Source of the DNA: a virus
DNA length: 64,000 bases
IMG/VR virus record: IMGVR_UViG_3300045988_140636
Direction: 5' to 3' (one strand)
Shown here: piece by piece, positions 34,775 through 60,579 of the stretch
How the letters are laid out: every line of letters starts with the position of its first letter
How positions within the stretch are numbered: the first letter of the stretch is position 1
Notes under the pieces: model-generated
Told to the model about the DNA's origin: nothing
The model's database searches: none
Seen by the model: only the letters and a program-made list of their open reading frames with translations
Translations under genes and position numbers: made by a program

Positions 34775-37630
34775 TTAACTTAATAAATTTATTGTACCAC
34801 AAATACTGTCACCATTTTCATCTCTATAATCTACATTAGGCTGAATAGACGTTACATCATTTTCTGAACCTGAGGGAATTTCAAGGGAAGAGCCATATAT
34901 ATCTTCATAAGCCTGTCTTAATGCATCCTCACTAAAGGCCTCTCTGTACATTTCAGAATAAGCCAAATCCTCTTCTGTCATTTGAGGAGTTTCATAAGAA
35001 GTAACTGCTTCATCAATAACAGCATTAGGATTATAACCTTTCTTGTTCTTATCAATTACAGAAGTCATTTCACTTGCTTCCTTACCATACTCATATTCAA
35101 TAAAGCTATTCTTGAATCCAAGTGGCTCAATCCTTCTATAGACGGCTACATTAGACTCTTCAACTCTATCTGCAGTTAATCTGTAATAAATATAGTTACC
35201 TTTGTTTCTTCTTGCAATGAAATCAAAGAAGTCATATACAGGACCATCAGGAGTATCTATTCTCTTCTTGATGATTTTTTTATCCCCAAAATTAGCATTT
35301 TCATCTATTACAAATGTAACTTCATCCTTAATCCCATTATCTTCACCTCTAAATAAAGTTGAAGCATCATCAGGAATTTCAGGAACAAGCTTTCTATTAT
35401 CAAGATGATTGTAGACATACTGTTCAACAAAGTCACTATAGTCATCCTCGGATGTAAGGAGACTTCTTAGTGTTTCAATATACTCTGGAACTGCACTTCT
35501 TACAGCTACAGGAGCTAAATGAATAAAGGTATTAGGACCAAATGCAAAGCCATTTCTGTAGAAGCTGTATCTGAATAAGTTAAGAGCAAGCTTTTGAGCT
35601 TCTGGGTTACTCATATATAATAGAGAAGTCCAGTCTCTCATATATCTTTCTCTTAGAGTGGGACTCAATTGACCAACATTCTTAAACACCACAGTGTCCA
35701 CAGGATTTGTATCATTTGCCCTTATCACTCTAAGTCTCTTAATAAACTCAAGGTCAGCTATATCCTCATTCTCTGCAACCACTTTCTTGAAGTAAGTTGG
35801 GAAATTATTGATGAAGTCCCTTCTCTTGTCAGCAGATGTAATCATCTTTGTAGGATTACCATTCTCATCTACTGAACTCCAATCAGGTTCTGCACCAAAG
35901 AAATCTGTCTTAGACATTATATAAGCAAGCAAATCATTGTAAATACTATTCATAGTCTTCACATTTAATCTACCTGTCTTTGTCATGTTTCTAAGAACAT
36001 CAACTACCTCATCAAATGACTCAGTGAATTGAGGGAAATACTTGCTTAACATTCTCTCTGATTGCTTCAATCCAAGTGTGTAGAATGCCTGTAAGAAAGG
36101 CAATTTACTTGCAAGCAATTGCTCTCTTATGTTGTCAATGTCATCATTAAGAGAAATACTGTCACTGATTACATCTGCCCCTACAAGTGGAAACTTGTCA
36201 TTCTCCTCCATATCTTTCAAGAAGTCTTGAACCTTTTGGATTTTGAGCTTTGTATCAGCAATAGTTGGACCTGCTGCACCACCTTGAGTATCAGACCTTG
36301 TAGCTTGCACAAGCTGACCAAGGCTATCAGCAGTTCTCATTATTCTCTTAAATAGGAATCCTACAGCAACTTGTTTCTTATAGAACTCAACCTTACTGTA
36401 ATCAGAAGTCTGATGGGCACTTGTGATGCCTGCCATTTCCTTTGCAATAAGGATGTTGTTGGCAAGGTCTTCAATTAGGAAGTCATTATTCTTATAGTTA
36501 TCATAAGTAACTTCTTCCATCATTGCAGCCTTCTTCTTATATTCTACAAGGATTTCATCAATCACAGTGTCCTTACCTTTACCTTCTCTACTCTCCCTAA
36601 AATAAGTCTGGGTAATATCCATAACAATAGGTTGTGTCATAAGCAAACCTATCTCAATAGGGTTATAACCTAGTCTTGAAAGAAGCATAGAAGCATCAGC
36701 AGTGAATGTATTTTGGTTAATACCAGCCAACACAGGATCTTTCACATTATCCACAGATGCAGCCAAGAAACCTGCATTATTCTTTGATATAAACTCTTTG
36801 TCTTCATTCATAATGTTATGTAAAGAAATAAGTCTCTTCCCATTCAATATAAATGAGCCATTCTCTACATCAAGGCCTAATTCAGTATGTTGCATTAAAG
36901 CATGATTAGCATTATGATTTGCATATATACCTATCAGTTTTGCACCAGTCATATTCTGTTGATGAAGTTGTACTTGAGTTCTTGGAGAAATAGGGTCAAG
37001 TCTTTTCTTAGTTTTTTCAGTAAGCCTATCAAGTTCTTTTAAATCCATTGAAAGTAACTTAGTAATAATCGAGCCATCAGAAATATTTAAGTCTCTTTTT
37101 AAATCTGATTCATAGCTCGAACTAAGAATACTAATAATTCTTGCAGCTTTCTTTTGATAATCAAAACCACCTGGGTTAAGAATCTTAGAGGCTGTATCTG
37201 TATTCGTTAGAACTCCCCACATCATATCTATCATCAAGTTGTTTCTTGCTTCAAGACTATTTTCTTGTGGAGTTTTATTAAAGTCATACTTTACTTTTCT
37301 AATCTTGTATGTATCAAGTCTGTACTTTTCCTTGTTTTCTTCAAACCATTTCTTAAACTCTACAGGTGCATTTGCAAAGTCCTCTAATAGATTTCCTGCC
37401 CTAAATAAGGTAGCTAATTCATCAAGTATTTCTTGCTCACCTTTAAAGTCCTGTTTTGCTCTTCTGAAGTCAAACTTATCTACCTTGAATTCAGGAAGCA
37501 TAATATACATCTTATCCACATCAAAGTCAGAACCTGACAGAGTGGTAATCTCAGCAGGAAGCATAATTGCAGAACCATTCTGTTGAGGTAAGAATCCTTT
37601 GATATACAAAGGAGCCATTGAGTACTTATC
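34775..37630 (-). CDS. virion-packaged RNA polymerase candidate (crAss-type, DFDVD motif), exon 2; precise 3' splice site within ~37625-37640 unresolved; ORF-track start 37696 is a GTG inside the intron
   Basis: Frame open from intron 3' region; SGSDFDVDKMY motif resembles DxDxD catalytic motif of crAss-like virion RNAP; S element and P9 hairpins lie at 37640-37716 so true exon starts downstream of annotated M. Confidence 0.5.
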   Translation of the reverse strand, partial: DKYSMAPLYIKGFLPQQNGSAIMLPAEITTLSGSDFDVDKMYIMLPEFKVDKFDFRRAKQDFKGEQEILDELATLFRAGNLLEDFANAPVEFKKWFEENKEKYRLDTYKIRKVKYDFNKTPQENSLEARNNLMIDMMWGVLTNTDTASKILNPGGFDYQKKAARIISILSSSYESDLKRDLNISDGSIITKLLSMDLKELDRLTEKTKKRLDPISPRTQVQLHQQNMTGAKLIGIYANHNANHALMQHTELGLDVENGSFILNGKRLISLHNIMNEDKEFISKNNAGFLAASVDNVKDPVLAGINQNTFTADASMLLSRLGYNPIEIGLLMTQPIVMDITQTYFRESREGKGKDTVIDEILVEYKKKAAMMEEVTYDNYKNNDFLIEDLANNILIAKEMAGITSAHQTSDYSKVEFYKKQVAVGFLFKRIMRTADSLGQLVQATRSDTQGGAAGPTIADTKLKIQKVQDFLKDMEENDKFPLVGADVISDSISLNDDIDNIREQLLASKLPFLQAFYTLGLKQSERMLSKYFPQFTESFDEVVDVLRNMTKTGRLNVKTMNSIYNDLLAYIMSKTDFFGAEPDWSSVDENGNPTKMITSADKRRDFINNFPTYFKKVVAENEDIADLEFIKRLRVIRANDTNPVDTVVFKNVGQLSPTLRERYMRDWTSLLYMSNPEAQKLALNLFRYSFYRNGFAFGPNTFIHLAPVAVRSAVPEYIETLRSLLTSEDDYSDFVEQYVYNHLDNRKLVPEIPDDASTLFRGEDNGIKDEVTFVIDENANFGDKKIIKKRIDTPDGPVYDFFDFIARRNKGNYIYYRLTADRVEESNVAVYRRIEPLGFKNSFIEYEYGKEASEMTSVIDKNKKGYNPNAVIDEAVTSYETPQMTEEDLAYSEMYREAFSEDALRQAYEDIYGSSLEIPSGSENDVTSIQPNVDYRDENGDSICGTINLLS

Positions 37631-38540
37631 TTCAGTTGGTTGTTTTGTTATCTTACAGATGTTTATTCTGTAATTCTTTATGTTTCCATAAAGCACGGAC
37701 TATATCTTCATCCTATAAGGATGTTGGGCACTCGTGGGTATATTATATTCTATTTTCATAGTTTCAATACCTAGTCTCTGAACCTTTTATAACCATTTAA
37801 GTTATAACTTGGCTGCTGATTGTCCCTACTTATTGAATTGTCACACACTTGCATATTCCCAGTAATAACCATATCTTTTCTGATGAGTTTTAATACCACT
37901 AATTATGTTAGCATCTTTCCTAATATTTCCTAATTGTCTGGCAGCTTCTCTAATAGATTGGTAAGTATTTATAATATTACCATCATTATCTATTTGATTA
38001 ATCTGTCTTTTATTAGGATTAGATTCTCTAAGTTTTAATCCTATTTTAACTGCTTTATTTCCATAACAGTTATTATAAGACTTAGTACACCATTCAAGAT
38101 TTTCTACAGAATTATTAGTCTTATTTTCATCTTTGTGGTTTATACATTCCAAATTGTTAGGATTTGGAATAAAAGTATCAGCTACTATTCTATGTACTGC
38201 AATAGTTCTTTTCTTGTTAGTGTCATCGTATAATTTCACTATAGGATAGCCACTACTATCAAGTACTGAGGATAAAGGTTTCAAAATGTTACCTTGTCTA
38301 TAACTAAATACTTTACCACTTTTAGTTACTTTATAGCTTGGATATTCTCCAAATCTACTTTTAATATTAAATAGTTCTTCTTCCATATAATGTTTTTGTG
38401 TAGATTTATATGTGCAAAGATACTATAAATATTTGAATTATGCAAATTTTGTATCAATAATCTAACAGGATGTTCCAGCAATTCACCCAATTTATTATTC
38501 TTTAGTATTACTACTAAAGCGAGTCCCAATCTTTCGATTA
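37631..38540 (-). ncRNA. group I intron with HNH homing endonuclease inserted between P and Q elements (boundaries approximate)
   Basis: Minus-strand reading: P gggtgaattgctggaac (38496-38480), Q caatcagcagcc (37822-37811), R ggttcagagactagg (~37785-37771), S gaagatatagtccgtg (37716-37701), P9 hairpin ctttatggaaacataaag; exon 1 ORF stop at 38538-38540. Confidence 0.65.
37841..38386 (-). CDS. HNH homing endonuclease (HNH_3/NUMOD), intron-encoded
   Basis: AVHRIVADTFIPNP...INHKDENKTNNSVENLEWCT HNH signature. Confidence 0.8.
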   Translation of the reverse strand: MEEELFNIKSRFGEYPSYKVTKSGKVFSYRQGNILKPLSSVLDSSGYPIVKLYDDTNKKRTIAVHRIVADTFIPNPNNLECINHKDENKTNNSVENLEWCTKSYNNCYGNKAVKIGLKLRESNPNKRQINQIDNDGNIINTYQSIREAARQLGNIRKDANIISGIKTHQKRYGYYWEYASV

Positions 38541-41500
38541 AACTCTATAACCAATCAACTTCCTAAGATCTTTAGGAAGTTTGGTAATATCAAGTTCATG
38601 AGTTCCTTCCTTCATAAGGGGTTCATAGAACTCTCTTGAATAAGCTGGCATGTAACATTCAAGATATTTAATTCTCTTGTTCTCACCTTCCCCTTCAAAT
38701 ACCACATGAAGTTCATCAGTTAAGCCATAATCAGATACCTGAATCAATGCTCCACCTCTAATCTTCTGTTTGGTGATTTTGCTCTTGATGATACTATTAA
38801 GAAGAGTCTGTACTCTTTGAGATTGTACAGGATCAAATAATGGAATATTGAACTGACCATTCTCATTAAGGGTACAGGCTCTGACCATATCAATTCCATA
38901 TCTCTGATTACCTCTAATCTCTTCAAGTAGTGCCTCCTCTATCTTCTTAGGGTCTTTGAATATATCATTCACATTCTTGAATGCTTGCAAGATATTCTCA
39001 GTATTGATTGCATTATACAGGTCCAGCCATTCCTGCTTGGTCATTTTCTTACCATCAACCTCAATGATAGCATCTGATGCAATATCAGCAGTAATCAACT
39101 TTCTAATCTGAGTACCTACAAGCTGCACAGCATCAATAGCATGTTCAGGAGTTGCAGTCTGAATACCATAATCTTCATAGCTTATTTTATGTACTACATT
39201 AGGATTCTCAATACCATTAGGCATAGTAGTATTCTTCAATACCTCCTTTACTTGCCTGAAGTCACTAACCTCGTTAAGGTCAATAACACCTTGCTTCCCG
39301 ACTTTAGTAGTAGATTCAAATTGAACTACATCAATATTGTTCTCTTCCATGAATTCATTAATAGCTTTAAGCTTGCTTGATTTACTAAGTGGACCAGCTA
39401 TTAACTCATGCATGGCAAGTAATAAGAATTCAGAGTTCTTATGCTGTACAGGAGTCTTAATACCAGTATGACCTTCTACACCACTCATGTTGCTAATTTG
39501 GGTATATACATAAGGTTTCTTAGTCTGCCAGATGATATTAAAGTCAGCAATGTTCCAAGTACCATTTTTGAAATTATTATATGCCTGCTCCATCTCATCT
39601 GTCCATTGGCCAGACATACCAAGTATTGCTCTATAGGAGCTTAAACTTCTATAAGCCTGTGCATCTGCAACATTAACTGCCTTAAACTTGTTAATAATAT
39701 TATCTCTATCCATCTTGGGCATTTCACCTTTCTTAACTCTCTCATCAAGAACTGTTTCAATATCACTCAGTACTGAAGATACAACCTCATCATCCTTCAA
39801 GTAGATAGTTCTTTCCCAATCTCTACCAATTCTTTCTCCCTTATAAGTAGCTTTGGTATTCATTCTAAGAGCTGGGGCATGAACCTCCTTATATCTCTTC
39901 TGAAAGTCCTCTACATTCTTATAGAAAGCTAAGTCGGTAGTAGTTAACTCAATAATTTGAGAAGTAGCTAATTTACTATTCCAGTAATACTCTCTTAATG
40001 CAGCTTTTGTATTATTCTTTACTATAAGGTTTTTGTTAATACTATCTGCTTCTTGTTTAGTAATATCTCCTCTTATAGACTTCTGATTTATTAAGTCTTT
40101 AATTTGTTGGAACAAATCTGTAGCAACTCTATCATCTACTGGATTATTGTTGTTATAATCTTTCAATAACAACTCCATATCAGTAGTCCATAAAGTAGTA
40201 CCAAGGATTTCTTTAGCTTTGATAAGAGACTTTGCAGTTCTTGAGTTCTGCTGTGATTGACCTGCAAAAGGTAAGTACTTATACTTTCCATTTGGTAACT
40301 CATCAAATAAACCAATTCTTGCCCAGTCTCTATATGCCTCTTCAAAGCCATTATCCATAACTTCTCTAAGAGTATCTCTAATGAATTCCTTTAACTCAGC
40401 ACCACTGCCTTCCCTGCTCAATCTACTCAATCTGTCAAGGAATGTTTCTCCATTATTATATCTAATGGAATTAAGTGCAGGTAAGAACTTAAACTCAGCT
40501 CCCCCTATACTCTTAATACTTCCATCCTTCTTCCTGGAAATATCATAGTTTGCTATAGGGGAGATGTTTGGATTATTATTCTGAAATTCCTCATCTCTTG
40601 CTCTGACAAGCATTATTCTGTCATATTCTTGATTGACTAAATCAGTTAGTTTATCAAGGATAATATCATCATAAGTCAGCTTGTTCCCATTCTCATCATA
40701 TTCAACTCCACTTACATATTTTCTGAATCTAATGAATTCAGCAGAAGGAGAATCTGAAAGAATAGGGACATGATACCAGGCCCACTTCACACTTGTTCTA
40801 CTATCTTCTGGGTCTCCCCAATATTCAGTAAGAAGTGCTAAGGTATAATCTAAGTCATCCCAGTTAGTGTAGTCCACTTTATCAGAGTTCAATACTACTT
40901 TATGATTTAGGCCTCTTCTCATTTCCTCAGAGTTAACCAGTTGCTCTAACCAGTCACTTCTCCATCTCCCATCTTTAAAGAACCACTCATATTGCTTAAA
41001 CTCAGTATTAATAAATTCTTCAAATCTCTTCCTATCTCCTCTTACATTCTTAAGCTGTTTAATTAACTTTCCAAGATAATTTGGGGTGACATGAGAGTAA
41101 TAAGACTTATCATTCTCTCTAACACTACTTTCAATAGCATCTTCAGTTACATTAGCCATCATATTTGCAATCGCACTATAAGCTGAACCAAATGTATTGA
41201 TTAAGTCTCCTCTCTTCTCTATTCCATCTTCTCCTGTTTCTGACTTTATTTCCCCCTTCTTGATTCCTTTGAATATAATATTCAATTGAGGTAGTAGGAC
41301 CATAATAGGGTCAGTAAACTTAGCTGTATCAGAAGTTCTAATATCAGTTAGTGCATTTCTTAATATAGAGGGATTGGCATCAATACCAATCATATTCAAC
41401 AGCTTTAGTATAGTTTTCCAGATCCTATCATCCTCAAGAAGTTCTAATCTTGCTTCAGTATCCAAATTAGAGAATTTATTGTTTAGAGTTTCGACCCACT

Positions 41501-42890
41501 TAAGACCTTTTTCAGCATTTTCAATATTTATGTCCCCATTCTTCTCATATACACTATCATTATCAAGTTGCATACCATTCTCATAGTTATCTCTCCAAGC
41601 ATCAAGAAGGTAATATACACCTTCAGGCTTGTTAATAGCAATGGTTTGCATCTTGAATGTACCATCAAGCATCGTCTTTTTCTTCTGGATCCAATAGGGT
41701 ACGAAATCCTTTCTGAAATCTTGATAGAATTGAGAAAATAGCGTATCATCCTCCTCAAGCAATTCTCTTACTTGAGTCACCCAAGGTTTATTCCTTTCGA
41801 GCCCCTGTATAAGAGGGATCATATCTTCAGAAGTAATCATATCTCTCAACTTGTCGATAAGAGTTGCATGAACATAATCAGCATCTAAATACCTTAGATT
41901 ACCCAAATCATCTTCCTTATACATTCCTTCATAGTCAAGCCTGGGTATTTCCCTAATAACTTTTCTAACTGCTTGAGATAAAGATTCATGGGAACTAACT
42001 TGTCTAAAGTTAGTCATCCAGCCATCTTTAAAAGTCTCTTCCTTATTATAATCATCAGCTTGCTCATCAAGCTCACTGTATCCTTCAGGAGTATCATCAT
42101 TTAAGTTAGCATCTTTAGGAGCACTATAGTTCAAGTCAATTCTAACTCCTTCTGTCATTACGAGTAATGTGCTAGCTTCTTCTGCCAAAGGTTTAAAGTT
42201 ATCAACAACTTTTCTATAAGCTTGTTCCTTATATACAGCTTTTCTTCTTGCAGCATCCAATTTTTGTTCATCAGAGAATCTTTCAGATTCATCTATAACA
42301 CCCTCATCAATTAATGTCTGCTCTCTTGCATTTATTGCCCCAAGTTCAATTTGTACTCTATTCTCTTCTGTATCGTTGATATAGGATTGAAATATATCCA
42401 ATACTCTGTCAAATAATCCAGCAGGGGTGTATTTCTTTATGGCATCAAATCTATTAAGGGAGCTTAACTCCATCTGTAATTGTAATCTTTCTTCATCAGA
42501 AGCTGTATCCATTCTCTTATTAAGAGAATCATTCATTTCCTGTAGTGCTTTATCTACCTCATTACTAAAGAATCTAGCAATAAGGCTTACTCTATCTCTT
42601 CTAGTTCTTGGGTCAAAGTCTAAATCAACCTTAGCTTGCTCTTCAATAGAAGAGATCTTAGGAGTGTCAAATGAAGTAGATAATGCTTCATCAAGCATTT
42701 CTATTGTATCTGCACTTCTGAGTTTAAATCTGAAATCATTAAGTTCCTTTGCAGAAGGATACTCTTCAATAGATTTATTATTCTCTTTTTGCCATAAAGC
42801 TACAAGGCCCTTTACAGATTCTTCTGTCTCACCTTGTAACTTCTCAGTTAAGTGCCTAATCTCTTTAGTTGCTACTAAACAATTATTCAT
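38541..42890 (-). CDS. virion-packaged RNA polymerase candidate, exon 1 (1450 aa); together with exon 2 ~2400 aa
   Basis: Long ORF ending ...KLIGYRV immediately before intron core; promoter-like TAccTTTG 30 nt upstream of ATG. Confidence 0.5.
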
Positions 42891-48791: not shown

Positions 48792-49109
48792 TTAATGAAC
48801 CCAGTAGGTTGGAAGAGGACCATTGTCATCAAGATATTCTCTATAGCTCTTTGGTAAGTCCTTTATTTTATAAGACTGATTAGTTCTGATATTTACTAGA
48901 ACATCTTCTCCCATAGAGGCTATAACATCGCCCTTAACCATGATCTTCTCTCCATTAAATTCAAAGTCTCCTATACATAATTTATGTCTGGACACGTCTA
49001 CATCCAACTTTACCCTGTGAACAAAATATGCTCCAGCTTTAACCATTATATCATATAGTACTTTAGCTATATCTTCCGCTATCTCTTCTGGAGCTTCACA
49101 GTTGATTTC
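48792..49109 (-). CDS. family A DNA polymerase, exon 2 (begins with E of motif C: EINCEAPEEIA...; ends ...TYWVH*); ORF-track start 49112 is a GTG at the intron 3' end
   Basis: Alignment to T7/Klenow segment after HDE (EIQVGCRTEEIAQVV / ELVFEVHKDDVDAVAK); intron ends ...taacatatgtg| at 49110. Confidence 0.65.
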   Translation of the reverse strand, partial: EINCEAPEEIAEDIAKVLYDIMVKAGAYFVHRVKLDVDVSRHKLCIGDFEFNGEKIMVKGDVIASMGEDVLVNIRTNQSYKIKDLPKSYREYLDDNGPLPTYWVH

Positions 49110-49973
49110 CACATATGTTACGAATATGTCGATTCCACATATTCTCTTTAGATTTCTCTAAAGGTCGGACTATATCTTATAAAAATCTCCACATATAGGC
49201 TAGTTGCCCATTGGTTAGATTTCTATCAGTGCTTTTCAGCTGCTCTTGCAGCTTACTCCATTTCTGGATAGTCTCTGAACTCCATAATTTATAAGAGTAA
49301 CAATTAATAGGATATTTAGCTAATATAGAATGAATAATATAGGCTCCCTCATATTTATTTATTCCTAAATAATATAATGGTCTGCTATGATTATTATCTA
49401 CTCTTACTTTAGCTTTTACTCCTATACTCTCAAAGAAAGGAATAAATACATTTTCTTGAATATTCAGAGAAAATTTCTGAGTATTAAGGTTGTAATATAA
49501 GTCCCTCTTATGAAGGCTCCCATCATCATAGAACCACAATGCTAAACCTAACTCATCAAGATTACTCACTACTTCTTCTATAGGGAGTTCCTTGATTAAT
49601 TTAAGTGAAAACCAAGCTCCTCCATAATAAGTATATATGGGAGTTTGGTTATAACCATTGCTGTCTACATGATTTATTTTGCCTTTACCAATTAATTGTT
49701 TTTTATACTCTAAGTATTCCTTATGCTTACAATTGGATGTATATATAGTACTACCACTATTAGTAGTAGATATGCAACCATCCCCTAATATAGCAGTAAG
49801 AAAAACCTGAGTTTGCTCTCTTGTAAAATCATAAAGCTGCTTATTGCCTATTTCTCTTAAGTTACTTAAAATCATATTTAATACTTTTACTAGTTTATTA
49901 TTACAATAATTCAGTGATTAAATCTTTAAGGGTTTCAAGCAATTAACACTGTTTTACTACAACAAAATTACTT
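49110..49973 (-). ncRNA. group I intron with LAGLIDADG homing endonuclease, inserted in DNA polymerase motif C
   Basis: S element aagatatagtccgacc (49177-49160 on minus strand), P-like gtgttaattgcttgaaaccc near 5' end, P9 hairpins; 5' splice after t (tacgat|aag), 3' splice after g. Confidence 0.65.
49177..49875 (-). CDS. LAGLIDADG homing endonuclease (double-motif), intron-encoded
   Basis: Two LAGLIDADG-like motifs: FLTAILGDGCI and LALWFYDDGSL. Confidence 0.75.
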   Translation of the reverse strand: MILSNLREIGNKQLYDFTREQTQVFLTAILGDGCISTTNSGSTIYTSNCKHKEYLEYKKQLIGKGKINHVDSNGYNQTPIYTYYGGAWFSLKLIKELPIEEVVSNLDELGLALWFYDDGSLHKRDLYYNLNTQKFSLNIQENVFIPFFESIGVKAKVRVDNNHSRPLYYLGINKYEGAYIIHSILAKYPINCYSYKLWSSETIQKWSKLQEQLKSTDRNLTNGQLAYMWRFL

Positions 49974-51938
49974 ATCGTAGGGTGTTACAGTAATTAACAC
50001 CTTGAATAATAAGTCATTACGTCTTAAGTATTCAAAAAAGTTTATCATACTCACCTTATAACACAATGCTCCAGTATGCTGTATAGGATAATTAACGGAT
50101 TGCCTATCAGAATCAGACTTCCTCTTAAAGAACTCTTTTACCATCTGCACCGTATCACATTTAGGAGCATCTATTTTCATTTCCCTATAGTAATCCCAAA
50201 ACCTAGGTTCCTTAAACTTTACTTGTAGCTTCCTAAGATAGTTCCAATCATAGATATAGGCTCTATATCCAACTTTAGGATTAAGGTCTATATAGCCTTT
50301 ACTGAACCAGTCCTTCTTTCTGAACTCAATATATCTTTTAAGACCATTAAAACCTTTCATATAATTGTCATATATCTCTTTAGCTCTTTTAGCTGTAAGC
50401 CCGAAGTTTCTCATAATGGTGTTGTCATTACCAGCGTAATTAAAAGCAAACTCATAACCTTTAGCCTCACTTCTCAACTTATGATACTGCTTCTTAACTT
50501 CTTTGGCAGGCATATCTTTAGGAATTTCAGGAAATACTATCTTCGCAGTTAGTGTATGTAAGTCCTTCTCACCATAGGTAAGCTCTCTAATCATCTCCTT
50601 ATCATCAGCTACATCAGCCATGATAAATGATTCTTGCCCTGAGTAATCGGCACTTATCCATTTATTGCCACTTTCAGCTATGAAACAAGCCCTAGTCCTA
50701 GCATCAGCAGGCATATTAAGCATATTTACGTACTCAACCTTAGCTGACTTGTCCTTACCTCCTGAGCTTATTCTTGCTGTATCAGTACCCAATGAGTTAA
50801 AGTTGGTATATAGCCTTCCAGTATCCCTATCTATCTGTTTAAGTACATTTGCCCCATAGGTACTGCACAGCTTCTTCATTTCCTTATACCTTATATATAA
50901 GGGAATAAGACCACACTTATCCTTCTGAGGAGCCAATACCTTAGCTCCTATACTATCCTTATCCTCTCCTTCATCTTTGTCAAGAGAAGTTGTATCAACC
51001 CCATATTTCTTAAATAAAGGAATAACTTGTTTGGAGCTATTCCAATTAAGAACCACTTGGGGTTCAGTATTAAAACCTGAGAATAAACTACCTTGCCTAT
51101 CTATTTTAATATACTTTGAATTGGGCTCATGCTCTATAAGCCATCTGTCCATTTCACCTTTAATGCTATCAAGAATAGATTGATCATGTTTCATTTTTTT
51201 CTGCCATTTATCTGTATCCATCTTTATGCCACAATAGCACATATAAGCAATAGGAAGTATAGCCCTGTTCTCATACTCCATAGCAGTAAGAAGTCCTTGC
51301 TTCTCTAATTGTTTCAATTGTAATTCTTGTATTTTCTCAAGATATTTTACATCATTGGCAGCATAGACTATGACATCTTCTGTAAGACCTTTATAGATGA
51401 TTTGCCCTCTTATGGATTTATCGAGCTCTACTCCAAGATACATTTCACCTAGCTTTTTCAGATTCATATATAGAACATATTTAGCTTTTGAACTTTTTTT
51501 ACTAGGGTCTGCCGGTACATAGTCATATCTAGGACATTGTATCTTATCCCATACTTCTGGACTTAATACAGTAGGGTAACCTAACCACATTAGTTTCTCT
51601 GCTAGAAACAAGTCATAGACATTACGAGGAACTATATGGTATTTATAAAGCCACTGTAGATCAAATTTGGCATTATGAAATAAGAAAAGCCTATCAGATT
51701 CAAGATAGTTTTCATATAAAGTAATATCTGTAGTAAGACAATCTATTACTACTTGAAAATCAAAGCACCCTAATTGCAATGACAAGAGCTTATCCTTATG
51801 ACAACTTAATCCACTAGTCTCGGTATCAACTCCTACAATTCTAAGAGGTTTAAGTAGGGATAGACTCTCGTCTACCCCTATTATTTTGTACTTCTCAGGT
51901 TCAAATAATTCTATATTTTTCGTAACTACATATATCAT
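49974..51938 (-). CDS. family A DNA polymerase, exon 1 (3'-5' exonuclease DxE motif GVDTETSGL, motif A DYSGQESFIMA, motif B RSEAKGYEFAFNYAG, ends ...TVTPYD)
   Basis: Conserved PolA motifs in order; ORF stop lies 2 codons inside intron. Confidence 0.7.
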
Positions 51939-53512: not shown

Positions 53513-56500
53513 TTAATCACATCTTGAATAACCACAATTCATGCAGTGTGTACAACCTCCATCTCTAACTAGGTTTCCACCGCACTCTGGGCACACTTCT
53601 CCTTTAATCTCTGAAGATTTAATATACTTGGCTAATATTCTACACATGGCAGAACTGAAGGAAGTTATATTATCATTTACTTTTTTGGCTGTTTTAGTAA
53701 TAAATTCAATGCTAACTCCATGTCTTAATAGCATTGATGAATATAAAGTAGCGGCTTTCTCCTCTATATTAGTATTAGCCAACTGTAAATCAGATAATTG
53801 AATAAACTTACTATCAAAGCTGTAGTGCATTTTACCTTTCTTGATAATCTTTCCTTTATGGGGAGGAATATCAATAGGTCTTAGAGGTCTGAATGCAAAA
53901 ATTTCATAAGGTTTCCCTTCTAACAATCCTACAAGAACGATAAATTGTTCCCCTTTCACTTTGACTTGATGATAGTCAGCTTCAAGCTCTTTAGGTCTCT
54001 TAGGAGCTTGTCTATTACTTATAGTACTAGGCTTTTCTATCTTATTCAAGACTCCTTCCCTACAACCATCTCTATATATAGTCTGTCCTTTATTTCCTGT
54101 TCTCCATGCTTCTATATAAATATCAGCAATCTCCTCTTCAGTAATCTCTTTTGGAAGATTTATTGTAGAACTAATACTATGAGTGATATATTTCTGTACA
54201 ATACCTTGCAACTTGATTCTTTGCTTCCAATCTATCTCTGGTGCTGTAGATCCATAATAAGGACTCTTCTTAAAAGCCTCTTTAAGATATTCCATATCCT
54301 GTAACTTCTCCAAATATTCAGGATCATTGAAGTTCCCTTTGAATGTAGAATAGCATAACCATTTGGCTAAATTAGGATGAACCACTGTGAATAAAGTGTA
54401 TTTTTCTCCTTTTACATCAGTATAATCTACTTTATCATTAGGAGACATACATTTTCTCTTTCTTCTATAGAATGGTAAAAAGACAGGCTCTATTCCAGAG
54501 GAACATTGAGCCATAATACTCACAGTGCCTGTGGGTGCAACAGTCGACCAACTTATATTTCTTCGGCCTAAGCATTTCATTTTAATAGCCTCTGTGTGGA
54601 AATTATCACTAAGGAATTCATACCATTTGTTCTTGCCACGATGGGGTATAACAGTATATTCCTTATGTGAATCCCAAGCTGGAAATGCTCCTCTCTCAAT
54701 AGTCATATCTATTTGAGAGTCCAATTGACCCTTAAATATAATCCTCATCAGATCTTCAATTTTTTGAATACCTTCATCAGAATCATATTTCAGCCCTAAC
54801 ATAGCTATGGCATCTGCCAATCCAGTAAAACCAAGACCAGCTCTTCTACCTCTTCTTGTAGTCTCTCTTATTCTACTCCATAGATTAAATTCTACAAAGT
54901 CAGATTCACCGTTAGCTATATTTATAATTCTGTCTATGGCTTCCAATTCAAGATCTACAAGATCATCTGCTAATCTCATAGCTTCGTAGGAATGCTTGTA
55001 GAGTAAGTCTTTATCAATATAAGATTCTTCCGTAAATGGATCTTTTATATAGCTTGTCAGATTAATATGTATCAATCGGCAACTATCAAAGGGACCCATT
55101 GGTATTTCTCCACAGTTATGAGCAACCATATTATTAGCAATTAAACAATGTGTTCCAGGTACTTGTATATCATATACATCTACTTGTTCACCTTCTTCAA
55201 TGCTAACTATACAATTATCCCACTGATTTCTACACTTAGTAGCTAAGTAATCAGGTAATGGCTCTGTATTTTTCCAAGCTGGGGTTTTTTCACTTGGGAC
55301 AAACCTCCCATCTTCTCCTCTGACCTGGTGATTTTGTGGATTCTGTTCTAATGCTGTAAGTCTAGCATGTTTAGAGTGATCAATAGATTGAAGGTTATTA
55401 ATTACATTATTAAATGGATTTGCATCTAAGTGATGAATATCCTTATCAATCTGCTGACCATATACTCCCTCATAAACAAGTCTATGCTCCATTACATAGT
55501 CCCTATTTCCCTCGGTAGTAAGTTTCACTCCGACATATCTCCTTCCTCTTCTGCTCCTTAGGATATGAGCAATTCTATCTCCTATCTTAAGATTTTGAGC
55601 TTCTATAAATCCCACTCCTTGAACGAACATTTTATGGTTAGGCGTAACCATTATAGAAGATCCATTTCTTAGGACAATCTTTAATGTTTTAGCATTATCT
55701 CTTGTCTTAAAAGCTGCTGTAGAGGGAACTATACAAATATGCCCTTCCTCATTCATGCTATATACATAAGTAGGTTCAGTTATATCAGCAATTCTCTTTC
55801 TGCCTTCTACAGTTTCAATGAGAGTATCAGGATGAAAGCAAGGATTTGTCCCGATCATCTTAAATTCTTCATAAACACCATCAGGAGCATAATCATGCAT
55901 AGCATTTTCAAACATTATTCCAGGTTCAGCTGTATTATATGCACAATGCATTAGAGTATTCCATAACTTTCTTGCTTTAATCTTTTTTAAACAAACTCTT
56001 TTTTCAGCAGGAAGGGCTTCCCCAAAGCAGAGTAATTTATCATATTCCATCTCTTCTAATTGAGAAGGATCATAATTGGCATGTACAGGCCATCTAAGCA
56101 AATAATCTTCATCATTGATTACTGCTCTCATGAACTCATCTGTGACTTTCACACTTATATTGGCTCCAGTTACTTTGGTAAGATCTTGCTTTTTAGTAAT
56201 GAACTCTTCAATGTCAGGGTGATTTATACTAATACTTAACATTAAAGCTCCACGTCTACCATTCTGTGCTACCTCATTGGTGATATCAGAACATACATCC
56301 ATAAAGCTTGCTGCACCAGTAGATGATTTAGCTGCATTATTCACTGCAGCTCCTCTTGGTCTTAGATTAGATAAATCATAACCTACTCCTCCTCTCCTTT
56401 TCATGAGCTGGACTTGCTGGCTTCTGGTATTCATTATACTAGAGTAACTATCTACTGGAGAACCTATTACAAAACAGTTAGATAAAGAGACCAATTTTCC

Positions 56501-56797
56501 TGTACCTAATCCGGACATAACAGAACCTCCAGGGATTATATATTTAAAGTTCTTGAACAGTTCATATATATCCTCCTCTTTTAGCTCTTTCCTTTCATTC
56601 CCATAAGGGGATAATACTAACCTGCCTTTTTGACTCATAGGAGTATTATTCGCATATTCTCTCTCTATTCTACCAAATTCCTTAGCGAGTCTCCTATGCA
56701 TATCATCAGGAGTAGTTTCTCCTTCCATAGCGTACTTGTTTTTCCATGTGGAAGCCGCTAATTCATCTCCATTAAAATAATTCAATAAATCATTCAT
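53513..56797 (-). CDS. nrdJ: ribonucleotide reductase, class II (adenosylcobalamin-dependent, NrdJ-like) with C-terminal zinc ribbon, interrupted by an intein
   Basis: Catalytic NPCGEI region (split by intein), CPECGG...CTHCMNCG zinc ribbon at C-terminus, overall RNR alpha architecture. Confidence 0.7.
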   Translation of the reverse strand: MNDLLNYFNGDELAASTWKNKYAMEGETTPDDMHRRLAKEFGRIEREYANNTPMSQKGRLVLSPYGNERKELKEEDIYELFKNFKYIIPGGSVMSGLGTGKLVSLSNCFVIGSPVDSYSSIMNTRSQQVQLMKRRGGVGYDLSNLRPRGAAVNNAAKSSTGAASFMDVCSDITNEVAQNGRRGALMLSISINHPDIEEFITKKQDLTKVTGANISVKVTDEFMRAVINDEDYLLRWPVHANYDPSQLEEMEYDKLLCFGEALPAEKRVCLKKIKARKLWNTLMHCAYNTAEPGIMFENAMHDYAPDGVYEEFKMIGTNPCFHPDTLIETVEGRKRIADITEPTYVYSMNEEGHICIVPSTAAFKTRDNAKTLKIVLRNGSSIMVTPNHKMFVQGVGFIEAQNLKIGDRIAHILRSRRGRRYVGVKLTTEGNRDYVMEHRLVYEGVYGQQIDKDIHHLDANPFNNVINNLQSIDHSKHARLTALEQNPQNHQVRGEDGRFVPSEKTPAWKNTEPLPDYLATKCRNQWDNCIVSIEEGEQVDVYDIQVPGTHCLIANNMVAHNCGEIPMGPFDSCRLIHINLTSYIKDPFTEESYIDKDLLYKHSYEAMRLADDLVDLELEAIDRIINIANGESDFVEFNLWSRIRETTRRGRRAGLGFTGLADAIAMLGLKYDSDEGIQKIEDLMRIIFKGQLDSQIDMTIERGAFPAWDSHKEYTVIPHRGKNKWYEFLSDNFHTEAIKMKCLGRRNISWSTVAPTGTVSIMAQCSSGIEPVFLPFYRRKRKCMSPNDKVDYTDVKGEKYTLFTVVHPNLAKWLCYSTFKGNFNDPEYLEKLQDMEYLKEAFKKSPYYGSTAPEIDWKQRIKLQGIVQKYITHSISSTINLPKEITEEEIADIYIEAWRTGNKGQTIYRDGCREGVLNKIEKPSTISNRQAPKRPKELEADYHQVKVKGEQFIVLVGLLEGKPYEIFAFRPLRPIDIPPHKGKIIKKGKMHYSFDSKFIQLSDLQLANTNIEEKAATLYSSMLLRHGVSIEFITKTAKKVNDNITSFSSAMCRILAKYIKSSEIKGEVCPECGGNLVRDGGCTHCMNCGYSRCD
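55115..55840 (-). mobile_element. intein (242 aa) with HNH endonuclease domain, inserted between NP and CGE of the RNR active site
   Basis: Begins Cys (CFHPDTLIETVEG), ends HN followed by +1 Cys (MVAHN|CGEI); internal HNH motif DIHHLDANPFNNVINNLQSIDHSKHA. Confidence 0.75.
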
Positions 56798-58596: not shown

Positions 58597-59171
58597 TTAA
58601 AGTCAAAACATTCTTGCGTTAGCAAATTTTGAAACTCTTCCAATAATCCAAGAGCAATTTGGGCTTCTCTGGCAGATCTGAAAGCAGCGAAGTTTTTGTA
58701 ATCCTTGATACATTCTTTTTTCAGGTTATAAACTTTCATACTAATTATATCTGCCATGTATATGTTAGGGCTATTACTAATATGATCTTCATAATTGGCA
58801 TCTAGATCGATAGCTATTTCCCTTAAGAACATAGTATATAGTGAAGCTGGACAAATATTAAGTAAGGTAAAAAGGAATTCTATAGAATTCTCTTCATTTA
58901 GACTGGATTTTTGGCATATTTTCCTAAGATAATACTCTACATCTTTTTCAGATTTAAGGGGTCCTTCTTCTAGATCTTCTCTCTCTACTATTAAACCTTT
59001 TTTAATTAGTTTACTTATGCTATTAGGAAGTACAATAAATTCTTGAATTACAGAAAAGTAATCTCCCCTACGTACTCTTCTTATAACGTCACCCATTTTT
59101 ACTTCTTCACCTGCTTTAGTGTAATACCTTTTCTTATTCATATTTTTCTGTTTAATGTCAATATTCTTCAT
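58593..59171 (-). CDS. hypothetical protein (192 aa)
   Basis: ORF. Confidence 0.3.
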   Translation of the reverse strand: MKNIDIKQKNMNKKRYYTKAGEEVKMGDVIRRVRRGDYFSVIQEFIVLPNSISKLIKKGLIVEREDLEEGPLKSEKDVEYYLRKICQKSSLNEENSIEFLFTLLNICPASLYTMFLREIAIDLDANYEDHISNSPNIYMADIISMKVYNLKKECIKDYKNFAAFRSAREAQIALGLLEEFQNLLTQECFDFK

Positions 59172-59649
59172 ACCATTTTATGGAATACCCATAAATATCT
59201 CTTAATTTTTTATCTATTTCATCAAATAGATAATGAGGCATCTTTGTCCCACTCCTTGCAAAATATGCAGGGTGTTCAATCTTCAAAACATGATTGAAAT
59301 TCTTATTGATATACGGATCAAATGTTCCAGCTTGTTTACCGAATAATACATATACAATAGAACACAAATTTTCCGAAAGATTCTTTAATAATTTAGATAT
59401 GAATGGTCTCCATAACATAACATGGGAGCCTATTTTATTCATCTCCACAGTAAGAGCAGAGTTAATCATTAATATACCCTGCTTAGCCCAGTTCTCTAAA
59501 GTTTGGTCAAAGATAATGCTATCATGTGGAATTTCCAAATTTATCACTGCTTCTTTTAATATTTTTAGAGAAGGCGACAAATCTTCTTCTGAAACTTCTT
59601 TTCTATTTCCAAACAGTACTCCAGTAGCTACTCCCTTTTGTGGATAAGG
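59158..59649 (-). CDS. ung: uracil-DNA glycosylase, exon 2 (starts PYPQKGVATGV..., contains HVLKIEHPAYFARSG C-terminal motif); ORF-track start 59652 is a TTG at intron 3' end
   Basis: Aligns with UDG from PYHGP... through HPSPLS motif; intron ends ggtaacaaattg| at 59650. Confidence 0.75.
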   Translation of the reverse strand, partial: PYPQKGVATGVLFGNRKEVSEEDLSPSLKILKEAVINLEIPHDSIIFDQTLENWAKQGILMINSALTVEMNKIGSHVMLWRPFISKLLKNLSENLCSIVYVLFGKQAGTFDPYINKNFNHVLKIEHPAYFARSGTKMPHYLFDEIDKKLRDIYGYSIKWYEEY

Positions 59650-60579
59650 CAATTTGTTACCCCAAAGGCTCTTTATCCTTTGGTTCTATATATTACTATA
59701 TAGTTCGGACTATATCTTCATTGTTTCCAATGCAGGGCACTCGTGTCAGGTTTATTATTTGAGCTATTCACCTGTTAGTCTCTGAACCTTCTACATACTT
59801 TTATGCTCTTCTGTAGCTTGGCTGCTGATTGACTCATTAAGTTGTTCCAGCAATTCACCCTGTTTATCCAGAACCCTTCTTTTACTATAAGTAATTAGTT
59901 TATATTGCATGGATGGAATAATATAATCTTTAATTAGTTCTACAAACTTAGGAAAATCCTTAGCTTGTAGATACATACTATTATCATGTTTGCCTACAGT
60001 AAAATGTAAGTCAAATTTATTTAATAATATGTTAGCTAACAAAAGCTGTTCTTCAAGAGTAAATGAACAAGTAGATAAGGTACATGAATTTTTAGTTACA
60101 TAACCATCATCCATATACCATATAGCCAAACCTAAAGCATCTATATCTTTTACAAATTCTTCAAAGATTCTTTTATGTCCATTAGAGTCATAATATTTTA
60201 ATCTTATATTTGTAAAAATAGGATGTAATCTAGATTTAAATCTATATCCAACTAATTCATGTAAATATCTTTTATTATTTACATGATATTCAACTATAGG
60301 AGATACTAAGTTATATTTATTTAGTATCTCCCATTTATACTCAAGATATTCTTTTTGTTTTTCAGAGTGCGCTATACTAAGACACATATTTTTAGCTGTT
60401 TTTCCTACTGAACAAAAACATCCATCACCTAACAAACTTCCTATAAGAAGTTGTCTTAGATCATTTTCTACTTTAATTTCCTTGTAATTCTTCATACCAT
60501 TAAGAATTTGGCACAAAGATAAGGTATTTGACCTAATATTGCAATATTCTAGTTAAATTATTTATAGATTATTACCAAA
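59650..60579 (-). ncRNA. group I intron with LAGLIDADG homing endonuclease, splitting the UDG GQD|PY motif
   Basis: Minus-strand P gggtgaattgctggaac (59849-59833), Q caatcagcagcc (59830-59819), R ggttcagagactaac (~59798-59784), S gaagatatagtccgaact (59721-59704), P9 hairpins; 5' splice after caggat|. Confidence 0.7.
59791..60516 (-). CDS. LAGLIDADG homing endonuclease (double-motif), intron-encoded; C-terminus overlaps intron P/Q elements
   Basis: LLIGSLLGDGCF and LAIWYMDDGYV motifs. Confidence 0.75.
   Translation of the reverse strand: MCQILNGMKNYKEIKVENDLRQLLIGSLLGDGCFCSVGKTAKNMCLSIAHSEKQKEYLEYKWEILNKYNLVSPIVEYHVNNKRYLHELVGYRFKSRLHPIFTNIRLKYYDSNGHKRIFEEFVKDIDALGLAIWYMDDGYVTKNSCTLSTCSFTLEEQLLLANILLNKFDLHFTVGKHDNSMYLQAKDFPKFVELIKDYIIPSMQYKLITYSKRRVLDKQGELLEQLNESISSQATEEHKSM

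Follow-up and report, generated by a model that had tools for sequence, protein, structure and literature searches.

A probable mobile group I intron with a LAGLIDADG endonuclease gene between the motif C Asp and Glu of a crAss-like phage DNA polymerase

Group I introns of the IA2 type have been reported in the DNA polymerase I (PolA) genes of several phages: after E. coli codon 674 in SPO1, SP82, Bastille and Pf-WMP3, at codon 676 in phiL7, and at "site 881" in the T7-like phages PhiI and W31 (PMC3428280). We confirmed on the sequence that the Pf-WMP3 intron lies at TRLSSSKP|NIQQIPSR, that is, after codon 674. By the same numbering, the reported "site 881" would place the PhiI and W31 intron between the His and the Asp-Glu pair of motif C, one codon upstream of the intron discussed here, and a polymerase insertion of ~680 nt in the T7-like Yersinia phage Yep-phi was found in motif B, not motif C. 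In crAss-like phages, core genes for replication and structure are interrupted by group I introns that carry endonuclease ORFs, some of the LAGLIDADG type, and other genes contain inteins (Yutin et al. 2021, PMC7886860; review PMC10136315). An intron in a Bastillevirinae DNA polymerase gene encodes a LAGLIDADG enzyme assigned to PHROG 11023 (PMC11878797).

The intron in the window, by which we mean the whole 64,000-nucleotide stretch of viral DNA that was analysed, has in common with the phage PolA IA2 introns the helices P7.1 and P7.2, an in-phase position at a conserved catalytic-site motif, a stop codon at or near the intron start, and an endonuclease ORF that overlaps core helices; like the Pf-WMP3 intron, it has no P2. 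It differs from them in its site (between the residues equivalent to Klenow D882 and E883), in its host (a crAss-like phage of Bacteroidota), in encoding a LAGLIDADG instead of an HNH endonuclease, and in having an ORF that covers more of the core (P5' to P8). The introns previously described in crAss-like phages (PMC7886860) belong to the same virus order, the present case being in the PolA of a Beta-group (Steigviridae, Mahlunavirus-like) phage. The Bastillevirinae intron has an endonuclease of the same PHROG 11023 and of LAGLIDADG_2, likewise within a group I intron of PolA, but its hosts are Herelleviridae of Bacillus, a lineage unlike that of the present phage. The DNA polymerase I of Bacteroides phage crAss001 (gp64, AXQ62707) is an orthologue with 72% identity to the window polymerase, matches it exactly around motif C (LITVTPYDEINCEAPE) and shares the NxLNxPA variant of the NLQNIP motif; unlike the window gene, it is intron-less and has no C-terminal insertion of ~53 amino acids.

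The source phage is crAss-like (Steigviridae) and shares ~96% identity with the uncultured phage cr128_1, its nearest relative, whose GenBank/RefSeq record presents the locus as three separate CDS, a truncated "DNA polymerase I" and two "hypothetical proteins," with no annotation of the polymerase intron. Exon 1 (49974..51938, minus strand, as are all features below; 655 codons) encodes a 3'-5' exonuclease domain and the polymerase domain up to the motif C Asp, and ends with the codon GAT at the point where the alignment to an intron-less relative, L017, breaks; both of its Pfam domains are above threshold (DNA_pol_A_exo1, 65.9 bits; DNA_pol_A, 144.9 bits). The corresponding ORF (51938..49968) is 656 amino acids long and has the C-terminus ...LITVTPYDK*. 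Exon 2 (48792..49109; 105 codons plus stop), which is contiguous with exon 1 in L017 and its product P0001, opens with the GAA codon of the motif C Glu followed by INCEAPEEIA, aligns to the Taq C-terminus, and includes the ~53-amino-acid insertion relative to the 707-aa crAss001-type enzymes. Matches in the PDB were the Taq, Bst, Klenow and Prex polymerases. The motif A Asp (DYSQIE) is present in ADYSGQES, motif B (RxxAKxxNFxxxYG) in RSEAKGYEFAFNYAG, and the TGR-motif Arg in TARISS, each aligned with Taq and T7. In motif C (His-Asp-Glu), Tyr stands in place of His, and Asp and Glu are united only after exon joining; the Tyr-for-His replacement qualifies motif C, not membership in family A.

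This PolA gene very probably carries a mobile group I intron of the IA2 type, inserted in phase 0 between the Asp and Glu codons of motif C, a reading in which we infer splicing and endonuclease activity from the sequence. The intron (49110..49973; 864 nt) begins with AAGUAA, which places an in-frame stop one codon past the 5' splice site, and ends with ...UAUGUG, the terminal G being position 49110. Comparison of L017 with the window revealed a single clean 864-nt gap corresponding to 49973..49110, with flanks 91-94% identical, and L017 encodes the contiguous 760-aa P0001, which reads ...VTPYD|EINCEAP... unbroken and to which the predicted spliced product is 96% identical from end to end. The boundaries predicted from P1 (with its invariant U.G), P10 and the terminal G match the L017 indel to the base, in agreement with the proposal of the initial annotation that the intron splits the catalytic Asp and Glu; the predicted ligated junction joins the exon 1 end ...CCCUACGAU to the exon 2 start GAAAUCAAC. 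That annotation had also held that the GTG (49112..49110) opening a small downstream ORF (49112..48792; GTG, then EINCEAPEEIA) is in fact the final three intron nucleotides, and this is borne out by the other copies, in which the intron ends with GUG, AUG or UUG and only the last G is invariant. Among the best 120 homologues, 105 have an unbroken ...PYDE.N.E., 7 are intron carriers that end in PYDK*, and 5 have HDE. Agreement of this kind is far beyond chance. At this position, cr128_1, MT835492 and 14 IMG/VR contigs (11-176 kb) carry the same intron.

The ribozyme fold was derived from an alignment (A1) of 15 distinct intron copies, with helices P1, P10, P3, P4, P5, P6, P7, P7.1, P7.2, P8, P9 and P9.1. 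These 12 proposed helices were 98.1% paired, a figure inflated relative to the slid controls because the structure was hand-drawn from the same 15 copies that scored it, and 21 pairs were changed on both sides. When the partners were slid by 1-3 columns, 37-47% of positions were paired and 0-2 pairs were double-changed, and none of 500 shuffles attained the observed pairing and covariation values. The compensatory changes include P1 and P10, the helices that fix both splice sites. Part of the helix conservation reflects coding constraint, because the ORF overlaps most core helices; P4 and P7 contribute no covariation evidence because they are invariant, and P7.1 and P7.2 are short of one pair each in nine L002-type copies. 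P1 (49958..49979) consists of 6 bp between exon UACGAU (49979..49974) and the guide GUUGUA (49963..49958), and is 100% paired in all 15 copies, with the guide reading GUUGUA or GUCGUA, G-U and G-C alternating at column 10/25, and the U.G wobble at the 5' splice site unchanged throughout (15/15). P10 consists of 5 bp, 100% paired, between AUUUU of the P1 loop (49968..49964) and GAAAU of exon 2 (49109..49105), with covariation at column 20/880 (C-G in 9 copies, U-A in 6).

The 5' half of the ribozyme core (49826..49951) contains the 5' strand of P3 (49951..49947; CAGUG, CGAUG, CUACG or CAAUG, 3 covarying pairs), P4 (49942..49937) with P4' (49842..49837), P5 (49931..49929) with P5' (49849..49847; 2 covarying pairs), and the 5' strand of P6 (49836..49826; 1 covarying pair). 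The 3' half (49110..49290), located by RF00028 alignment, contains P6' (49290..49280), the 5' strand of P7 (49273..49269), P7.1 (49268..49257), P7.2 (49253..49238; 2 covarying pairs), P3' (49231..49227), P8 (49226..49179; 6 covarying pairs), J8/7 with the 3' strand of P7 (AAGAUAUAGUC, ending at 49168), P9 (49163..49146; 5 covarying pairs) and P9.1 (49143..49123; 1 covarying pair). The core helices P3 to P8 are accompanied by a J8/7-P7 segment that fits the RF00028 consensus, and P3, P5, P6 and P8 covary; the same segment, AAGAUAUAGUC, is present in two group I introns elsewhere in the window that pass the Rfam gathering scan (80.9 and 54.4 bits). Joining of P7.1 and P7.2 by G-U-A is the criterion for IA2 (PMC3428280), and the arrangement UCCAgaaaUGGA-GUA-AGCUGCaagaGCAGCU carries this signature. 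The Rfam gathering scan of the whole window (50-bit threshold) does not call the polymerase intron, and a permissive RF00028 scan reached 35.1 bits (E=7e-7) over the intron 3' half only; the P6 loop holds ~535 nt of ORF and the P5 extension holds the ORF start, more than the model, with its 253 positions, can span. The RF00028 placement of P1-P6 inside the ORF was a forced, wrong alignment and was replaced by the comparative analysis. Two other pairings were rejected: a local hairpin CAGUG...CACUG (49951..49924), which lacks covariation of its second arm in L002, L007 and L016, and an alternative P5 of CUUAAAG with UUUUAAG, which is broken in the L002 group. P3 was assigned to the pairing with the distal CACUG (49231..49227) because that arm covaries. 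An intein or a group II intron is unlikely, since neither Hint motifs nor a reverse-transcriptase ORF are present and the core is clearly of group I. The window additionally carries an intein in RNR.

The intron contains an ORF of 232 codons plus stop (49177..49875) that matches PF03161 LAGLIDADG_2 with 43.5 bits (cut-off 25) and, weakly (E=4e-7), PHROG 11023 "homing endonuclease with LAGLIDADG motif," so that the LAGLIDADG assignment of the initial annotation holds. Its translation contains two LAGLIDADG motifs, at ...AILGDGCIS... and ...LWFYDDGSL... (...FLTAILGDGCIS... and ...LALWFYDDGSLH...), each with a conserved acidic residue as in monomeric enzymes; both motifs are kept in all 15 copies, and none of the 15 has a broken ORF. 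The ORF opens within the P5 extension, runs across P5', P4', P6, the P6 loop, P6', P7, P7.1, P7.2, P3' and P8, and ends in J8/7; it is a clear case of an endonuclease ORF overlapping almost the entire ribozyme core. Alleles with and without the intron coexist in near-identical phages, and the intron and its host gene have diverged discordantly; both observations suggest that the intron is mobile. Relative to the window, identity in L007 is 94.7% for the polymerase exon and just 80% for the endonuclease, and in L002 it is 51% for the polymerase and 71% for the endonuclease. The same intron is present in polymerases that share only ~51% identity. Across a 48-nt target region, YDE-clade alleles match at 37-47 of 48 positions versus 22 of 48 in an HDE relative, and the crAss001 allele reads CCTTATGAT|GAAATT across the equivalent site.

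In the proposed mechanism, the pre-mRNA would fold, exogenous G would attack after the U of ...UACGAU, and the 3'-OH of exon 1 would next attack after the terminal G (49110), such that the joined exons (GAU-GAA) would encode a 760-aa polymerase of ~88 kDa with the motif ...VTPYDEINCEAP.... On unspliced RNA, translation would end at the UAA one codon beyond Asp, and the product should be dead as a polymerase because its motif C would have no Glu and its last 105 residues would be missing. The putative monomeric two-motif LAGLIDADG enzyme would cut intron-less alleles near ...CCCTACGAT|GAAAT... during co-infection, probably leaving the 4-nt 3' overhangs typical of its enzyme class, and repair of the cut allele would copy the intron in (homing).

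The locus might instead encode a polymerase that is split without any splicing, in which the 656-aa chain ending ...PYDK and a 106-aa chain started at the GTG (49112) assemble non-covalently and the endonuclease gene is free-standing. The three CDS of the cr128_1 record agree with this, as does the fact that exon 2 is preceded, depending on the copy, by GTG, ATG or TTG, each of which can serve as a bacterial start codon, although such a pattern is expected by chance since three of the four NTG triplets are start codons. We consider it highly unlikely: the endonuclease ORF is enclosed by an entire, covarying group I fold; the guide pairings of P1 and P10 change in step with the exons, which would be purposeless without splicing; the catalytic Asp and Glu would be placed on separate chains; and intron-less relatives are unbroken at exactly the exon junction. 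Still less probable is a decayed, non-splicing intron or an assembly artefact that leaves the polymerase gene a pseudogene. The Rfam score under the gathering threshold would fit such decay, and splicing is itself deduced from sequence features; the arrangement nevertheless recurs in at least 16 independent contigs or records (contigs of 57-176 kb) from differing samples and countries, its helices and ORF are kept through compensatory and synonymous change, and this PolA is the only polymerase found in the replication block of the window, with both exons free of frameshifts and stops.

A different splice junction that restores the canonical HDE can be regarded as effectively refuted by sequence comparison. 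The HDE tripeptide is absent from all six frames of 48900..50300, the only P1 terminated by U.G is at GAU| with P10 and the terminal G setting the 3' site, and unbroken homologues, crAss001 included, have YDE. The initial annotation was therefore right in reading YDE in place of HDE, a motif shared by the contiguous P0001 and crAss001, and also in aligning the PYD|EINCEA region to motif C: phmmer aligned Taq ...MLLQVHDELVLEAPKERAE with ...VLITVTPYDEINCEAPEEIAE, so that Y, D and E fall opposite H784, D785 and E786, respectively. The corresponding T7 gp5 residues 650-666 read AWVHDEIQVGCRTEEIA. YDE is also lineage-typical, the point that the annotation had left for alignment to settle, as it is native to a clade of more than 90 unbroken homologues (...PYDEINCEA...), among them gp64 of the cultured crAss001, in which an uninterrupted gene reads VTPYDEINCEAP and which shows that YDE is viable. 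HDE is retained in more distant relatives, and across 111 representative clusters motif C was YDE in 8 and HDE in 99. YDE is not a product of the intron but the ancestral motif of the crAss001/IAS/cr128 polymerase clade. A reclassification of family A (PMC10201439) is silent on YDE and on crAss polymerases. Loss of the "fidelity-switch" Arg (Klenow R668) alongside the His was ruled out, the Arg of TGR being kept as TAR.

The intron is a well-supported but ordinary instance of a familiar type of phage parasite and upsets no existing understanding, and its novelty is limited because introns in conserved phage PolA motifs and in crAss-like phages have already been described. The preferred reading would correct the annotation of the locus to a 760-aa spliced polymerase with a homing endonuclease as the middle ORF. 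Gene callers can be expected to divide this core marker gene wrongly across many gut-virome assemblies, with consequences for the PolA phylogenies by which Crassvirales are classified. The distribution of the intron also points to active exchange of introns among crAss phages of the Beta group (Steigviridae-like) and an unclassified lineage of 110-176 kb.

Among 110 representative relatives, all 7 Tyr enzymes were without the NLQNIP Gln (Klenow Q677), with Leu, Asn or Cys instead, and 99 of the 103 His enzymes kept it. Klenow Q677 is a J-helix residue said to regulate terminal-mismatch removal. The motif C Tyr may be half of a coupled active-site remodelling and not a neutral quirk, a tentative suggestion from sequence co-variation that we consider rather unlikely. 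If the Tyr and the Gln loss interact at the primer terminus, they would represent a recurrently evolved alternative configuration in crAss001-type replicases, which would affect fidelity or the hand-off between polymerase and exonuclease sites, and the homing endonuclease target would track the variant (YDE) clade. The YDE motif and the co-variation at Q677/H881 provide a mutational hypothesis testable in a cultured system, crAss001 gp64. The Tyr enzymes occurred in at least three sequence contexts, PYDE, IYDE and VYDE.

The family A DNA polymerase (PolA) gene is very probably interrupted between the Asp and Glu codons of motif C by a spliced, mobile group I intron. Joining exon 1, which ends on GAT (51938..49974, minus strand), to exon 2, which starts on GAA (49109..48792, minus strand), gives a 760-aa product. 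A search of 5.8 billion proteins with this product returned a contiguous 760-aa polymerase that matches 100% of the query length at 96% identity, as well as many further contiguous homologues of 700-760 aa. Among the 120 best homologue hits, the motif C region (...PYDE.N.E.) was uninterrupted in 105, five, all more distant, had IPVHDE, and seven ended in PYDK and a stop and are therefore intron carriers. The contig encoding the 760-aa relative (L017) is syntenic with the window in two BLAST blocks (90.7% and 94.4% identity), the gap between which is window-only sequence of exactly 864 nt (49973..49110); its intron-less allele reads CCCTACGAT|GAAATCAAC at the junction. The initial annotation, which had proposed a LAGLIDADG-bearing intron between these two residues, was thus borne out: the relative lacks exactly this segment, the homologues are contiguous, and a 232-aa ORF matching Pfam LAGLIDADG_2 (49875..49177, minus strand) lies inside the 864 nt.

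On either side of this endonuclease ORF, the 656-aa exon 1 ORF (51938..49968, minus strand) ends in LLFKVLITVTPYDK and a stop and matches Pfam DNA_pol_A_exo1 and DNA_pol_A, the latter match ending at profile position 333/381, and the 106-aa exon 2 ORF (49112..48792, minus strand) has a GTG start followed by EINCEAPEEIA and gave no match in the Pfam search. The record of the uncultured phage cr128_1 (Crassvirales; Steigviridae; Mahlunavirus), which is 96% identical in the polymerase region, has the same three ORFs, one labelled "DNA polymerase I" and the others "hypothetical proteins", and the intron is unannotated. Exon 2 also encodes an insertion of ~53 aa near the C-terminus (48795-48990, minus strand; HKLCIGDFEFNGEKIMVKGDVIASMGEDVLVNIRTNQSYKIKDLPKSYREYLDDNGP), for which no family match was found; it is shared by 760-aa relatives, but neither the crAss001-type enzymes of 707 aa nor the lineage of L002, a locus with another intron copy, have it.

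The polymerase intron was not called by the default Rfam scan of the window, though two other group I introns were; a permissive scan matched 49380..49146 to RF00028 with 35.1 bits, against a gathering threshold of 50 (E=7e-7), and the matched segment contains AAGAUAUAGUC, which is typical of J8/7-P7, and then a P9 hairpin. The same intron occupies the same site in cr128_1, MT835492 and 14 IMG/VR contigs, and 15 distinct copies were aligned. In 12 helices (P1, P10, P3, P4, P5, P6, P7, P7.1, P7.2, P8, P9 and P9.1), derived by comparison from the same sequences used for counting, standard pairs filled 98.1% of 1125 cells, with both-side changes at 21 of 75 helix pairs. When 3' partners were slid by 1-3 columns as a control, 37-47% of cells were paired with 0-2 both-side changes, and none of 500 shuffles reached the observed pairing values. 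P3, with 716 nt between its two strands, takes four forms among the copies (CAGUG/CACUG, CGAUG/CAUCG, CUACG/CGUAG and CAAUG/CAUUG), and P8 and P9 contain six and five covarying pairs, respectively. P1 pairs UACGAU with GUUGUA or GUCGUA, and its final pair, at the 5' splice site, is U.G in every copy; P10 pairs GAAAU with AUUUU or GAGAU with AUCUU, the guide sequence and exon 2 covarying. The terminal intron base is G in all copies, preceded by two variable bases; P4 and P7 were invariant across the alignment, and P7.1 and P7.2 each lose one pair within the L002-type group. At alignment columns 44/149 in P4 (window 49942 / 49837), 14 copies have U.G, and the copy at locus L016 has C and A, which would be an isosteric C.A+ wobble, a non-standard pair. 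P7.1 and P7.2 are linked by GUA, the criterion quoted for subgroup IA2 (PMC3428280), to which the intron therefore belongs; like the Pf-WMP3 intron, it is without P2.

The LAGLIDADG ORF begins in the P5 extension (49875), runs through P5', P4', P6, the P6 loop of ~535 nt, P6', P7, P7.1, P7.2, P3' and both P8 strands, and stops at a UAA in J8/7 (49179..49177), so that most core helices double as coding sequence. ORFs that reach into the intron core have been described before (Hausner et al. 2014; Pf-WMP3), though the overlap here is extensive. The ORF is intact in all 15 copies, and its two motifs, ILGDGC and FYDDGS, indicate an endonuclease of the monomeric type.

Phage PolA introns have been reported after E. 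coli codon 674 (SPO1, SP82, Bastille and Pf-WMP3), at 676 (phiL7) and at "site 881" (T7-like PhiI and W31) (PMC3428280), and a LAGLIDADG in a PolA intron was reported for a Bastillevirinae phage (PMC11878797); the present case therefore joins a known kind. The Pf-WMP3 intron site, ...SSSKP|NIQQIP, confirms the meaning of the 674 numbering, and on that reading the PhiI/W31 intron would split H|DE, one codon from the intron described here. New features are the host lineage and gene, the insertion point one codon from the reported one, and the fact that the intron is publicly unannotated. In the T7-like Yersinia phage Yep-phi (HQ333270, 13179-15125), a ~680-nt intervening sequence in the DNA polymerase, annotated as a joined CDS, lies between RDNAKTF and IYGFLYGAG, that is, in motif B (T7 F524|I525), a site different from 674, 676 and 881.

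Tyr in place of the canonical motif C His, also claimed by the initial annotation, held up: a phmmer alignment places Y, D and E on Taq H784, D785 and E786 (T7 gp5 counterpart, WVHDEIQVGCRTEEIA), and no HDE was found in any frame near the junctions. When the spliced protein was compared with its homologues, one of the checks then proposed, PYDE prevailed among the best hits; gp64 of the cultured phage crAss001 reads VTPYDEINCEAP from an uninterrupted gene, as is also the case for IAS virus, and VHDE is present in cr108_1 and DAC17, both other Asinivirinae. Motif C was HDE in 99, YDE in 8 and HDQ in 3 of 111 representatives of 50%-identity clusters, counting those that cover the motif. The crAss001/IAS motif and these counts indicate that YDE is typical of the lineage, has recurred, and does not preclude a viable phage. 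In Klenow, mutation of H881 is reported to cut kcat ~10-fold, and Arg668-His881-Asp882 to form a conserved network (PMC11122685); the network Arg is kept here, as TARISS.

The motif C His (H881) co-varies with the NLQNIP Gln (Klenow Q677, numbering checked via Pf-WMP3) in 110 representative relatives: enzymes with the Gln had His in 99 cases and Tyr in none, and those lacking it had His in four and Tyr in seven (Fisher's exact test p = 1e-8, a figure inflated by relatedness). Tyr enzymes show three different sequence contexts, PYDE, IYDE and VYDE. The window PolA has NMLNMPA at about 50724-50704 and YDE at 49979-49974 plus 49109-49107 (both minus strand).

Intron-plus and intron-minus alleles both occur in phages >90% identical, and intron divergence is discordant with that of the host gene: identity to the window is 94.7% for polymerase exon 1 and 80% for the endonuclease at locus L007, and 51% and 71%, respectively, at L002. 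In the 48 nt around the insertion site, 37-47 positions are conserved among YDE-clade alleles, and 22/48 match in an HDE relative. From these sequences, such conservation fits homing, itself inferred, by an endonuclease that would recognise the motif C coding sequence. The same intron lies in polymerases ~51% identical to that of the window in L002 and L008-L015 (MT835492 and IMG/VR contigs, 108-176 kb), which are much larger unclassified phage genomes with a 274-aa sigma-70-like ORF adjoining the polymerase; this sharing suggests that separate lineages of gut phages have exchanged the intron.

The window has a second group I intron (RF00028 80.9 bits; locus 59686-60516 with 59158-59652, minus strand), adjacent to another LAGLIDADG_2 ORF of 241 aa (Pfam E=2.7e-33), with which it overlaps; the intron's Rfam match lies in full at the 3' end of that ORF. 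A UDG-superfamily ORF follows directly downstream, which suggests that the intron splits a gene for uracil-DNA glycosylase. A third (37676-38386, minus strand; RF00028 54.4 bits) bears a 181-aa HNH_3 / I-HmuI-like endonuclease ORF (PHROG 59) and separates a 1450-aa ORF (38538-42890, minus strand) from a 973-aa ORF (34775-37696, minus strand); neither had a Pfam match, and together they are probably one giant intron-split crAss gene of ~2400 aa. The 1094-aa ribonucleotide reductase ORF (53513-56797, minus strand) contains an intein at residues about 326-561, with matches to Intein_splicing (58 bits) and PT-HINT and a domain of the HNH_3 endonuclease type, and the same intein is present in L017, the relative without the polymerase intron.
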